Origin: a phage
Strand: one strand, 5' to 3'
Sequence record: PX969468.1
Length of the DNA stretch: 64,000 nucleotides
Position 1 is the stretch's first letter; each line of letters begins with the position of its first letter. A program made the position numbers and the translations under genes. Positions 45,080 through 45,978 of this stretch are shown in pieces. The notes under the pieces are model-generated. The model saw only the letters and a list, made by a program, of their open reading frames with translations. It was not told the DNA's origin and made no database searches.

Positions 45080-45108
45080 TTGACAAACTTTGCTTAACAG
45101 TGTAATAT
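45080..45108 (+). promoter_or_regulatory. sigma70 consensus promoter upstream of the tRNA cluster (TTGACA-17-TAATAT)
   Basis: Perfect -35, 17-bp spacer, near-consensus -10; about 60 nt before the first tRNA. Confidence 0.6.
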
Positions 45109-45166: not shown

Positions 45167-45241
45167 GCCCTGTTAGCTTAGTGGATAAAGCAGCGGCCTT
45201 CTAAGCCGTTGACACTGGTTCGAGTCCAGTACGGGGTGCCA
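45167..45241 (+). tRNA. tRNA-Arg (anticodon TCT)
   Basis: Cloverleaf folded by eye: 7-bp acceptor stem, D-arm GCTT/AAGC, anticodon loop CTTCTAA, T-arm ACTGG-TTCGAGT-CCAGT, encoded CCA. Confidence 0.75.
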
Positions 45242-45245
45242 AATT

Positions 45246-45332
45246 GGGGAGTTATCCCGTAGAGGTAGCGGTGTAGACTGTAAATCTATTGTCATTGCGA
45301 CTCGGGTGGTTCGACTCCACCACTCCCCACCA
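45246..45332 (+). tRNA. tRNA-Tyr (anticodon GTA), type II with long variable arm
   Basis: Acceptor GGGGAGT/ACTCCCC, anticodon loop CTGTAAA, T-arm GGTGG-TTCGACT-CCACC, CCA. Confidence 0.75.
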
Positions 45333-45446
45333 AATTTATATTTTTAAATGCATAAATCATACAGATAATGACATTGATATTTATCGTCGTTTATACTAGT
45401 CACTAACTGCTCGAAAATCAGTGTCATTATCAGTGTAATTTATAAA

Positions 45447-45537
45447 GGAGGGTAGGGAGCAATGGTGCTCAAGCGGTCTTGAAAACCGTCCCGTTGAGGA
45501 TGACTCGATGATGGTTCGATTCCATTACTCTCCGCCA
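45447..45537 (+). tRNA. tRNA-Ser (anticodon TGA), type II
   Basis: Acceptor GGAGGGT/ACTCTCC, anticodon loop CTTGAAA, long variable arm, T-loop TTCGATT, CCA. Confidence 0.65.
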
Positions 45538-45635
45538 CATTGTTGACCTTGTAATTAAGCGAAAGCCGGAAGCAGAACCGGATTATCAAATGTTACAGTC
45601 GTCATCGCCGACTAGCCACATGGTCAACATATTGC

Positions 45636-45734
45636 GCTAGGTAAGCCCTTTGGCAAGGGCGAGGATTTTTAATCCTGAAAATAGACGAGGTAGTCGTTGA
45701 ATACATAGGTGGTTCGATTCCATCACCTAGCACC
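45636..45734 (+). tRNA. atypical tRNA-like gene (about 99 nt; Lys TTT-like anticodon loop; about 29-nt extra region); possible pseudogene
   Basis: Perfect 7-bp acceptor (GCTAGGT/ACCTAGC), D-arm, T-arm GGTGG-TTCGATT-CCATC, anticodon loop TTTTTAA with a 4-bp stem; insertion too long for a canonical type I tRNA; no full CCA. Confidence 0.35.
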
Positions 45735-45738
45735 TTTT

Positions 45739-45814
45739 GCTGATGTAGCACAATTGGCAGTGCAATTGATTTGTAATCAATAGGTTGCAGGTTCAAGTCC
45801 TGCCATCAGCACCA
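45739..45814 (+). tRNA. tRNA-Thr (anticodon TGT)
   Basis: Acceptor GCTGATG/CATCAGC, D-arm GCAC/GTGC, anticodon stem ATTGA/TCAAT, loop TTTGTAA, T-arm GCAGG-TTCAAGT-CCTGC, CCA. Confidence 0.8.
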
Positions 45815-45815
45815 T

Positions 45816-45890
45816 GGCCCTGTAGCTGGAAGGTTCAAGCAAGCGACTCATAATCGCCAGACGGTGGTTCAATTCCACCCAGGGCCACCA
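45816..45890 (+). tRNA. tRNA-Met or Ile2 (anticodon CAT)
   Basis: Acceptor GGCCCTG/CAGGGCC, anticodon loop CTCATAA, T-arm GGTGG-TTCAATT-CCACC, CCA; G1-C72 argues against initiator. Confidence 0.7.
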
Positions 45891-45901
45891 AATAATAAAT
45901 A

Positions 45902-45978
45902 CTCCGCGTAGCTCAGCTTGGTAGAGCGCCTGATTTGGGATCAGGAGGTCGAGTGTTCGAATCACTCCGTGGAGACCA
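45902..45978 (+). tRNA. tRNA-Pro (anticodon TGG)
   Basis: C1-G72 acceptor, D-arm GCTCAGCTTGGTAGAGC, anticodon stem CCTGA/TCAGG, loop TTTGGGA, T-arm GAGTG-TTCGAAT-CACTC, CCA. Confidence 0.8.

Follow-up and report, generated by a model that had tools for sequence, protein, structure and literature searches.

What kind of gene is the tRNA-shaped element that interrupts the regular series of transfer RNA (tRNA) genes in the phage sequence PX969468.1? It lies in the 64,000-nucleotide (nt) stretch of this record that we analyzed as a whole (hereafter, the window), and a preliminary description had regarded it as a possible pseudogene, as a fusion of two tRNA halves, or as a tRNA carrying an insertion that would have to be removed. 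The analysis described here shows that positions 45636–45732 hold a real, selectively maintained gene of a structurally constrained tRNA-shaped RNA, and that this gene belongs to a conserved family, not described before, whose tRNA-shaped RNAs carry a structured extra domain and which is found in several groups of large enterobacterial phages. The gene is neither a pseudogene, nor a fusion of half-tRNAs, nor an intron-bearing tRNA, because its helices covary, its extra arm is always present, and its conservation within the genus is like that of a tRNA. The gene and its conservation in more than 200 phage records far exceed what chance would produce.

The gene is encoded on the plus strand and extends over 97 nt to the discriminator nucleotide, as found by ARAGORN, by the Rfam tRNA model, and by the covariance model of the family (R1, see below). 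The strands GCTAGGT (45636–45642) and ACCTAGC (45725–45731) form the acceptor stem, in which all seven pairs are of the Watson-Crick type. Inside this stem follow the connector nucleotides A8 and A9 (45643–45644), the D arm (45645–45660; stem GCCC/GGGC, loop TTTGGCAA), in which three of the four stem pairs covary, the invariant G26 (45661), and the anticodon-like arm AGGA/TTTTTAA/TCCT (45662–45676), whose stem covaries and whose loop sequence is genus-specific. The T arm GGTGG-TTCGATT-CCATC (45708–45724) contains one G.U pair, and four of its five pairs covary. The discriminator A73 (45732) is followed by CC (45733–45734) and then by T; a complete CCA is thus not encoded, the terminal A being missing. 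The variable region between the anticodon-like stem and the T arm occupies 31 nt (45677–45707) and consists of a 7-nt 5′ linker GAAAATA (45677–45683), a 15-nt hairpin GACGA-GGTAG-TCGTT with a stem of 5 base pairs (bp) (45684–45698), and a 9-nt 3′ linker GAATACATA (45699–45707). The cloverleaf with its acceptor stem, D arm and T arm, as well as the 4-bp anticodon-like stem with a Lys-like loop, had been recognized in the preliminary description and were borne out (loop and A73 match the Lys set); the extra sequence in front of the T arm is also real, although its length is 31 nt counted from stem to stem, not about 29 nt.

The boundaries are consistent among the methods. ARAGORN places the gene at exactly 45636–45734 and leaves it unassigned, as 'tRNA-??? 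(atcc)' with a 4-base anticodon. The Rfam tRNA model (RF00005) gives 35.5 bits (gathering threshold 29; E = 3.4e-5), and its alignment treats 26 nt of the variable region as an insertion and marks the first (outer) pair of the anticodon stem as non-standard. The tRNAscan-SE annotation of a BASEL record gives the identical 97 nt. Neither ARAGORN, nor Rfam, nor the record annotations returned a canonical tRNA at shifted boundaries, all of them giving about 97–99 nt. Two other placements of the anticodon arm were rejected: the 'atcc' reading of ARAGORN (stem AUUUU/AAAAU), because it is not conserved in the relatives, and the extra-arm hairpin as the true anticodon arm, which has a 5-nt loop and a sequence unrelated between lineages. 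The minimum free energy fold is the cloverleaf with the extra hairpin (−34.2 kcal/mol, z = −4.09), and none of 200 shuffled sequences reached the same stability.

When compared with a canonical tRNA, the RNA has the 7-bp acceptor stem, the 5-bp T stem, a T loop of the UUCRANY type, and a D loop of the G18G19 type. The canonical tertiary pair U8:A14 is replaced by A8 and U14, both invariant in an alignment of 24 sequences, and the variable region is neither the 4–5 nt of class I nor the compact arm of class II tRNAs, being 31 nt here and 38–40 nt in relatives. An anticodon stem of 5 bp around a 7-nt loop with U33, as in canonical tRNAs, is also lacking, although the window member has U33 itself, unlike most relatives, in which this position is A; the arm here forms either 4 bp with the 7-nt loop UUUUUAA or 5 bp, with U31-A39, around a 5-nt loop. 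In addition, the pairs U14:A21 and U15:A20 suggested by RNAalifold could lengthen the D stem to 6 bp with a 4-nt loop; these pairs are invariant and hence allow no covariation test.

The evidence that this structure is maintained comes from its relatives. A 119-nt query including the gene matched 127 phage records, 120 of them near full length. In Avunavirus Av-05 and phage TH18, the 96-nt body is that of the window member apart from three differences; the loop is TTTATAA, and A4:U69 of the acceptor stem is replaced by the compensatory G4:C69. The copy from Seunavirus (NINP13076) shows 75% identity, with compensatory changes in the acceptor and D stems and a longer extra hairpin between flanking linkers that are identical to those of the window member. 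This copy, used as a query, matched 189 records, and those fetched belong to Seunavirus, Mydovirus, Henunavirus and Avunavirus. The hosts of the fetched relatives are Salmonella, Cronobacter, Klebsiella, Proteus, Raoultella, Enterobacter and Erwinia. Most of these relatives have the gene unannotated or overlaid by spurious small open reading frames (ORFs), and in the Erwinia phages Hena1 and pEp_SNUABM_01 it is labelled 'tRNA-TERM'. Further copies were found in one Schitoviridae phage (the N4-like UTK0002) and in phi92-like Justusliebigvirus (Stephanstirmvirinae).

A family-specific pattern and the covariance model R1 were then applied to IMG/VR and metagenomes. A loose IMG/VR pattern (GAAAATAG...TGAATACA) yielded mostly apparent chance matches and was abandoned in favour of the specific one. 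The search added members, some of which lie on contigs with very large tRNA arrays, and in total 39 distinct homologues were collected from five Vequintavirinae genera, phi92-like Stephanstirmvirinae, one N4-like phage and metagenomic phage-like contigs. The features defining the family are A8, a D loop UUUG(G/U)YAA, G26, a 4-bp stem NGGN/NCCN, a GWAAA linker, the hairpin, an AAUAC linker, and a 7/5 acceptor/T branch; the window member has all of them. It scores 101.8 bits with R1 and is the sole strong match in the window, while the 39 members score 88–122 bits and the next-best sequences at most 45. The members always lie within tRNA clusters, often 2–5 nt behind the CCA of the preceding tRNA. 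As for a host origin, it was rejected: no match exists in 5,426 E. coli genomes, and of ten contigs of bacterial genomes that matched the search pattern none was confirmed by R1 (all at most 20 bits).

Some other unusual genes were noticed in these searches. A second, 107-nt long-armed tRNA-like paralogue (L187:5031–5137, plus strand; L172:3791–3897 and L190:6186–6292, minus strand) occurs on the same metagenomic contigs as family members; it has the loop CCUCAAA and U73-CCA and scores 43–45 bits with R1. With reported lengths of 866 kb and 368 kb, these contigs contain large, repetitive arrays of tRNA genes (Gly, Val, Arg, Met); the ORFs near the L187 copy, ORFans and an RRXRR-HNH endonuclease, are uninformative. 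Other genes called 'tRNA-???' by ARAGORN, with anticodons ggca, gt and ga (L149:5994–6079, L144:928–997 and L144:2598–2672, all on the minus strand), lie in the large tRNA clusters of PVP-SE1- and KNP2-like phages, which may thus hold further non-canonical tRNA-like genes.

Covariation was computed on the 39-sequence model alignment, with the 24-sequence MAFFT alignment mentioned above as a second version. In the former, 98.0% of the cells form standard pairs as compared with 80% after shuffling, changes on both sides are seen in 17 of the 22 pairs, and the covariation score of 0.545 (0.197 for shuffled alignments) was reached by none of 500 shuffles; pairing falls to about 30–44% once the partners are slid. 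The acceptor stem shows double-sided changes at six of its seven positions across the family. The elbow pair G19 (45653):C56 (45715) becomes U19:A56 in 9 of the 39 sequences without exception, so that it is 100% paired, and the D loop UUUGGCAA accompanies the T loop UUCGAUU, while the D loop UUUGUCAA accompanies UUAGAUU. This covariation argues for a tRNA-like L-shaped fold, without which it is hard to explain.

Within the genus, the RNA is conserved like bona fide tRNAs. Among 12 Vequintavirus-like sequences, 5 of the 97 columns are variable (5.2%), as compared with 24–25% in the adjacent spacers and 1–16% in the Thr, Met, Tyr and Ser tRNAs. The variants compared in the genus are neutral to the structure: A9G, U7.G66, a change of G50.U64 to G-C, and changes in the hairpin loop.

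The extra sequence in the variable region shows a strict order in every member: a 5′ linker GAAAA(A)UA(Y), a hairpin, and a 3′ linker (U/G)RAAUACAUA. The 5′ linker is kept in all lineages; the 3′ linker is present in all 39 sequences, with AATAC invariant in the 24-sequence alignment, and takes the form AAAUACGAAA or AAAUACGUU in the most distant groups. Across the family, 7–9 and 9–11 unpaired conserved nucleotides flank the arm, and the whole region measures 38–40 nt in most lineages and 31 nt in Vequintavirus and Avunavirus. The hairpin sequences are unrelated between lineages and fall into at least six stem types, among them GACGA/UCGUU, CCUCC/GGAGG or CCCCC/GGGGG, GUUAGAC/GUCUAAC, GUUUUAAU/AUUAAAAC, and a type with GCC/GGC, GUC/GAC or GCG/CGC that carries a conserved GAACUAACAGUAC loop. 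An A-U to G-C compensatory change distinguishes the hairpin of the window member from that of Av-05 and TH18. All 18 lineage representatives have a hairpin at this place (mean z = −2.4), and in 13 of the 18 it is at or below the 5% level of the shuffles. Because the linkers are conserved and the hairpin covaries and keeps its place in all lineages, the apparent insertion is best read as a predicted structural arm of the mature RNA and not as an intron or a scar. A loop-loop (kissing) contact between the anticodon-like loop and the extra-arm loop was also considered: in phage 4MG (L134), GCCA in the former faces UGGC in the latter, where the Seunavirus sequences L130, L131 and L133 have UCCA:UGGA. 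This contact was rejected as a general feature, since it rests on this one suggestive compensatory case and is absent in the arms with the GAACUAACAGUAC loop.

The stem of the anticodon-like arm covaries (A-U/G-C; U-A/C-G/A-U), and position 31:39 is C-G in 14, U-A in 13 and C.A in 12 of the 39 sequences, so that the arm has either 4 bp with a loop of 7–8 nt or 5 bp with a loop of 5–6 nt. Position 33 is U in nearly all tRNAs; six divergent lineages of the family share the loop (C/U)AUCAAA with A there. The Seunavirus and Mydovirus loops have 8 nt (CCAUCCAG, CCAGCCAG, CCCUCCAG and others), and that of the L187 group is UAUCGAA. Canonical tRNA-Gly(UCC) coexists with the family member in PVP-SE1 and in a GAP31-like contig, and the phi92-like phages have canonical Lys(UUU) and Gly(UCC) alongside it. 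ARAGORN did not call the family members in the relatives scanned (L002, L003, L144, L148, L149 and L157). When three relatives were scanned against Rfam, the best matches were to tRNA-Sec at 27 and 39 bits (gathering threshold 47), and the phi92-like ones had no match. Taken at the level of the family, these observations argue against ordinary decoding, and the window member, with a 7-nt loop and U33, is the most tRNA-like of all.

What, then, may such an RNA do? We consider the chances roughly even for the hypothesis that it mimics a tRNA, engaging a host or phage protein that binds tRNAs, and is not an ordinary decoder. The mimic is favoured because the loops of most relatives are not anticodon-like and full canonical tRNA sets coexist with them, and because what the family conserves is the tRNA 'handle' together with the linkers, whereas most of its loops would not permit decoding. 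Such an RNA could, for instance, be a decoy or competitor that draws off an enzyme targeting tRNAs. The RNA appears to keep the features by which tRNAs are handled, namely, the 7-bp acceptor stem, the T arm, the elbow of the D and T loops, and the discriminator with (C)CA. Since these are retained and the genes are packed tightly behind tRNAs, maturation through the tRNA pathway may be supposed: the RNA would be co-transcribed with the neighbouring tRNAs and excised by RNase P and 3′ trimming, with no splicing. In the window genus, where the encoded sequence ends in A73-CC, the final A would have to come from the CCA-adding enzyme. The parts that set the RNA apart from tRNAs are the A-rich 5′ linker, the hairpin and the AAUAC 3′ linker, together with the shortened, non-canonical anticodon-like arm, whose loop may have been remodelled in the window genus to resemble the anticodon loop of tRNA-Lys(UUU).

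Several observations weigh against the mimic and against an indispensable gene. Our literature searches found no expression, end-mapping, charging or binding data on the RNA. Phages V18 and JES2013 have lost the gene, which is therefore dispensable at least in some settings. The central triplets in a fixed register are UCA, UCC/GCC, UCG, UUU and UAU, with position 37 always A, and the discriminator tracks them: U73 goes with UCA and UCC/GCC, and A73 with UCG (L187 group) and UUU (window genus). Such coupling is what a chargeable tRNA would show. U34–U36 and A73 are identity elements of the E. coli lysyl-tRNA synthetase, and G1:C72, C2:G71 and U73 fit the E. coli rules for Gly. The UCC/GCC of Seunavirus and Mydovirus with U73, G1:C72 and C2:G71 is thus Gly-compatible, the UCG of the L187 group with A73 is Arg-compatible, and the loop of the window genus (U33, UUU, A37, A38) with A73 forms the Lys identity set, as far as sequence features go. 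A73 is confined to the window genus and the L187 group, U73 with CCA being found in most relatives, and the UAU sister clade, with U or C at 73, is off the pattern. Finally, Vequintaviruses lack a canonical tRNA-Lys, and the ORFs of the window are Lys-rich (73 per 1000 codons).

These last points bear directly on a rival that we hold possible but less probable than the mimic: in the Vequintavirus lineage the RNA might function as an elongator tRNA-Lys(UUU) of non-canonical build, its extra arm being class-II-like, and serve the Lys-rich proteome. The match of the 7-nt loop and A73 to the Lys set makes this conceivable, and the tRNAscan-SE-based label tRNA-Lys, the Rfam tRNA score above the gathering threshold and the cluster without a canonical tRNA-Lys speak for it. 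So do the adjoining Thr(UGU) gene, the UAU of the sister clade, which would read AUA in the manner typical of tRNA supplementation by phages, and the existence of a tRNA-Lys(UUU) with a long extra arm on another phage contig (L222). By extension, an anticodon arm different from that of the host could sustain translation when PrrC or PARIS AriB cuts the host tRNA-Lys. However, the anticodon stem stops at 4 bp, G.G occupying the position of a fifth pair, and U31-A39 can close the loop to 5 nt; A8/U14 replaces U8/A14, CCA is incomplete, and the family linkers and arm are fully kept. The ancestral state (A33, 8-nt loops, coexisting canonical tRNAs) also points to a non-decoding role, and U or C as discriminators beside UAU in the sister clade misfit the identity of Ile. 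Tentatively, and with no greater probability than this rival, the family may also be viewed as a device dedicated to counter-defence or to the rewiring of translation, with a tRNA as its chassis. It could be an 'armoured' non-canonical tRNA that is charged and decodes but is immune to anticodon-arm nucleases, its triplet and discriminator switching together (UCA or UCC/GCC with U73, UCG with A73, UUU with A73), or it could be a purpose-built decoy, whose loop copies the target tRNA of an immune nuclease, tRNA-Lys in the case of rV5-like phages.

That the locus acts as DNA or as part of a transcript, i.e., as processing punctuation, an internal promoter or a terminator in the tRNA operon without a stable RNA, is quite improbable: tRNA-like elements can act as punctuation for RNase P/Z, the D arm and the U-run behind it score like a terminator, and the linkers are A/T-rich and conserved, but a mere cut site needs neither the elbow covariation nor the U73 and CCA encoded in most members, the terminator-like U-run is seen only in the window genus, and antisense targets of the 3′ linker in the window are not in excess (12 matches against 11.2 expected). 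A decaying pseudogene, a functionless relic with an insertion, is very improbable. The labels 'Pseudo' or 'OTHER' in some records, the losses in V18 and JES2013, the missing terminal A of CCA and an arm shorter than in other genera would fit it, while the spacers vary about five-fold more than the gene, whose conservation in the genus equals that of the neighbouring tRNAs, and compensatory changes occur in every helix among the 39 homologues, between Vequintavirus and Avunavirus/TH18 in the acceptor stem and extra arm, and family-wide with the tertiary pair included. We regard as highly improbable a tRNA gene bearing an intron or insertion that would be spliced to a tRNA of about 70 nt. Removal of about 26 nt would indeed leave a class I tRNA of normal length in the Rfam alignment; nevertheless, the 31–40 nt of extra sequence lie in the variable region and not in the anticodon loop, the site at which intron-bearing bacterial tRNAs carry a group I intron of hundreds of nt, no intron or ribozyme family of Rfam matched the window member or the relatives scanned, and the linkers that would be removed are the most conserved family-specific sequence around a covarying hairpin. 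To our knowledge, bacteria have no protein-dependent splicing of such elements from tRNAs. As for a recent fusion of two tRNA-gene halves, its probability is practically negligible. Recombination between tRNA genes is seen in the cluster, and a real half-fusion exists, but only as the deletion product in V18, where a tRNA-Tyr 5′ half continues directly into the 3′ part of this RNA; yet the full architecture with covarying acceptor strands is common to Vequintavirinae, Stephanstirmvirinae, the N4-like phage and metagenomic contigs, and therefore any fusion would be ancient and now a selected gene. None of the three origins considered in the preliminary description is thus upheld.

The class II tRNAs (Leu, Ser, Tyr) likewise have a cloverleaf with a stem-loop between the anticodon and T arms and occur in the same phage clusters, and the Ser and Tyr tRNAs of the window are its next-best R1 matches (24–26 bits). 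The arms of class II tRNAs contain few unpaired nucleotides, whereas that of the present family stands on the 7–9 and 9–11 conserved linker nucleotides, in combination with the 4-bp anticodon stem, A8/U14 and mostly non-anticodon loops. A long extra arm is also shared with tRNA-Sec, allo-tRNAs and selC* tRNA-Cys (Mukai et al. 2017, PMC5389517), as is a D stem that may reach 6 bp around a 4-nt loop; many members resemble selC* tRNA-Cys in combining U73 with a loop that contains UCA, and allo-tRNAs have varied anticodons and possible non-translational roles (PMC5389517). Unlike these RNAs, the family has a 7/5 acceptor/T branch supported by covariation, not 8/5, 8/4 or 9/3, and it has A33 instead of U33 and a shorter instead of a longer anticodon stem. 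With the tRNA-Sec model (RF01852) no match was reported for the window member and relatives stayed at 27–39 bits against the threshold of 47; together with the 7/5 branch and a discriminator A or U in place of G73, this separates the family from tRNA-Sec, which is marked by a 13-bp (8/5) branch, a 6-bp D stem, a UCA anticodon and G73.

Among phage RNAs, T4 species 1 and 2 (rnaC and rnaD) are small stable RNAs of a tRNA cluster, of unknown function and located at the cluster end. They have 119–139 nt and are not full cloverleaves, though rnaC ends in a T-arm-like hairpin; homology was rejected, as R1 gives 11.3 bits on rnaC and nothing on rnaD, and they are analogous only. T5 encodes variant tRNA-Lys, tRNA-Thr and tRNA-Asn that escape the tRNA-cleaving PARIS AriB (PMC11464382, PMC12409363), and the likeness lies in a phage-encoded Lys(UUU)-type loop beside Thr(UGU) and in an anticodon stem that, where AriB cuts, is unlike that of the host. 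The tRNA-Lys of T5 is described as deviating from its host counterpart by two mutations around the cleavage site (PMC11464382, PMC12409363), while the RNA described here has a remodelled arm and an extra domain, and decoding by it is putative. Mimicry of tRNAs outside decoding is exemplified by tRNA-Other of B. cereus, which becomes charged but presumably plays no part in translation (PMC5389517), and by the tRNA-like domain of YrlA, a bacterial Y RNA, neither of which is related in sequence. The Rfam model of YrlA gave only sub-threshold matches that span neighbouring tRNAs. The ends of YrlA lie in the Ro-binding stem and not in an acceptor stem. Rfam 15 has no dedicated family for the present RNA, which is not described in the literature searched, and reviews of non-canonical tRNAs list nothing like it (PMC7609411).

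The family matters because phage tRNAs have recently been recognized as weapons against tRNA-cleaving immunity (PARIS, retron Eco7, OLD, Schlafen-like nucleases), and because a conserved, strongly covarying RNA has been missed, mislabelled (Lys, OTHER, Pseudo, TERM, ???) or overwritten with spurious ORFs by standard pipelines. Its carriers, the rV5-like, PVP-SE1-like, Mydovirus and phi92-like phages, are groups in wide use for therapy and in the BASEL collection. The alignment and the covariance model are ready for use in annotation, and the question of decoding or decoy is directly testable in genetically tractable coliphages. The family is also a natural example of how a tRNA core can accommodate an 8:14 pair with exchanged partners, an anticodon arm of reduced length and an additional domain of 30–40 nt.

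The surroundings of the gene are as follows. The window comes from a Vequintavirus, an rV5-like coliphage; the region is 99.7% identical to that of Escherichia phages ECP2303 and ECP2309 and 99.6% identical to that of EduardKellenberger (genus Vequintavirus). The RNA gene is indeed located inside a tRNA cluster, as the fourth gene of a same-strand series identified by ARAGORN (45167–45978, plus strand; Arg-UCU, Tyr-GUA, Ser-UGA, the present gene, Thr-UGU, Met/Ile-CAU and Pro-UGG), with Thr-UGU as its immediate neighbour. Sites resembling sigma-70 promoters, as consensus matches only, are found at 45080–45108 and 45368–45397. The D-arm hairpin (45645–45660) with the U-run of the loop (45666–45670) matches the consensus of intrinsic terminators, and this U-run is restricted to Vequintavirus and Avunavirus members. 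The GenBank labels at the locus conflict: tRNA-Lys (BASEL, tRNAscan-SE), tRNA-OTHER, tRNA-Pseudo, 'tRNA-???(atcc)', or none. The rV5 genome paper lists six tRNAs, and the present RNA is not among them (PMC3606486).

In V18 (L004, about 1151–1247), tRNA-Ser and the spacers have been deleted, which leaves the 5′ half of tRNA-Tyr (...GACTGTAAATCTATTG) fused to the 3′ part of the odd RNA (GTCGTTGAATACATAGG...ACCTAGCACC); JES2013 (L005) is without Tyr, Ser and the odd RNA. Evidently, recombination between tRNA genes occurs in the cluster. The 91-nt tRNA-Lys(UUU) on the IMG/VR contig 3300037842_000445 (L222:649–739, minus strand) has a canonical 5-bp anticodon stem and the loop CUUUUAA; its extra arm, GTTG-GAAA-CAAC, is of a different kind and unrelated to the R1 family.

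Some minor observations concern the other tRNAs and the records. The tRNA with the anticodon CAT (45816–45890) is Met according to ARAGORN and tRNA-Ile (codon ATA) according to the BASEL record, and is possibly a lysidine-dependent tRNA-Ile2; ATA accounts for 15% of the Ile codons in the long ORFs of the window. The class II tRNAs Tyr (45246–45332) and Ser (45447–45537) give 33.7 and 41.5 bits, respectively, with the Rfam tRNA-Sec model (threshold 47), and both score lower with the general tRNA model; this looks like a reflection of their long arms and not of a tRNA-Sec identity. Finally, 18 GenBank records named 'Campylobacter phage' (MG0656xx; H42–H46, H76–H78) are 96.7–97.5% identical to E. 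coli Vequintavirus over the 119-nt query, and their assignment to a Campylobacter host is probably due to mislabelling or contamination.

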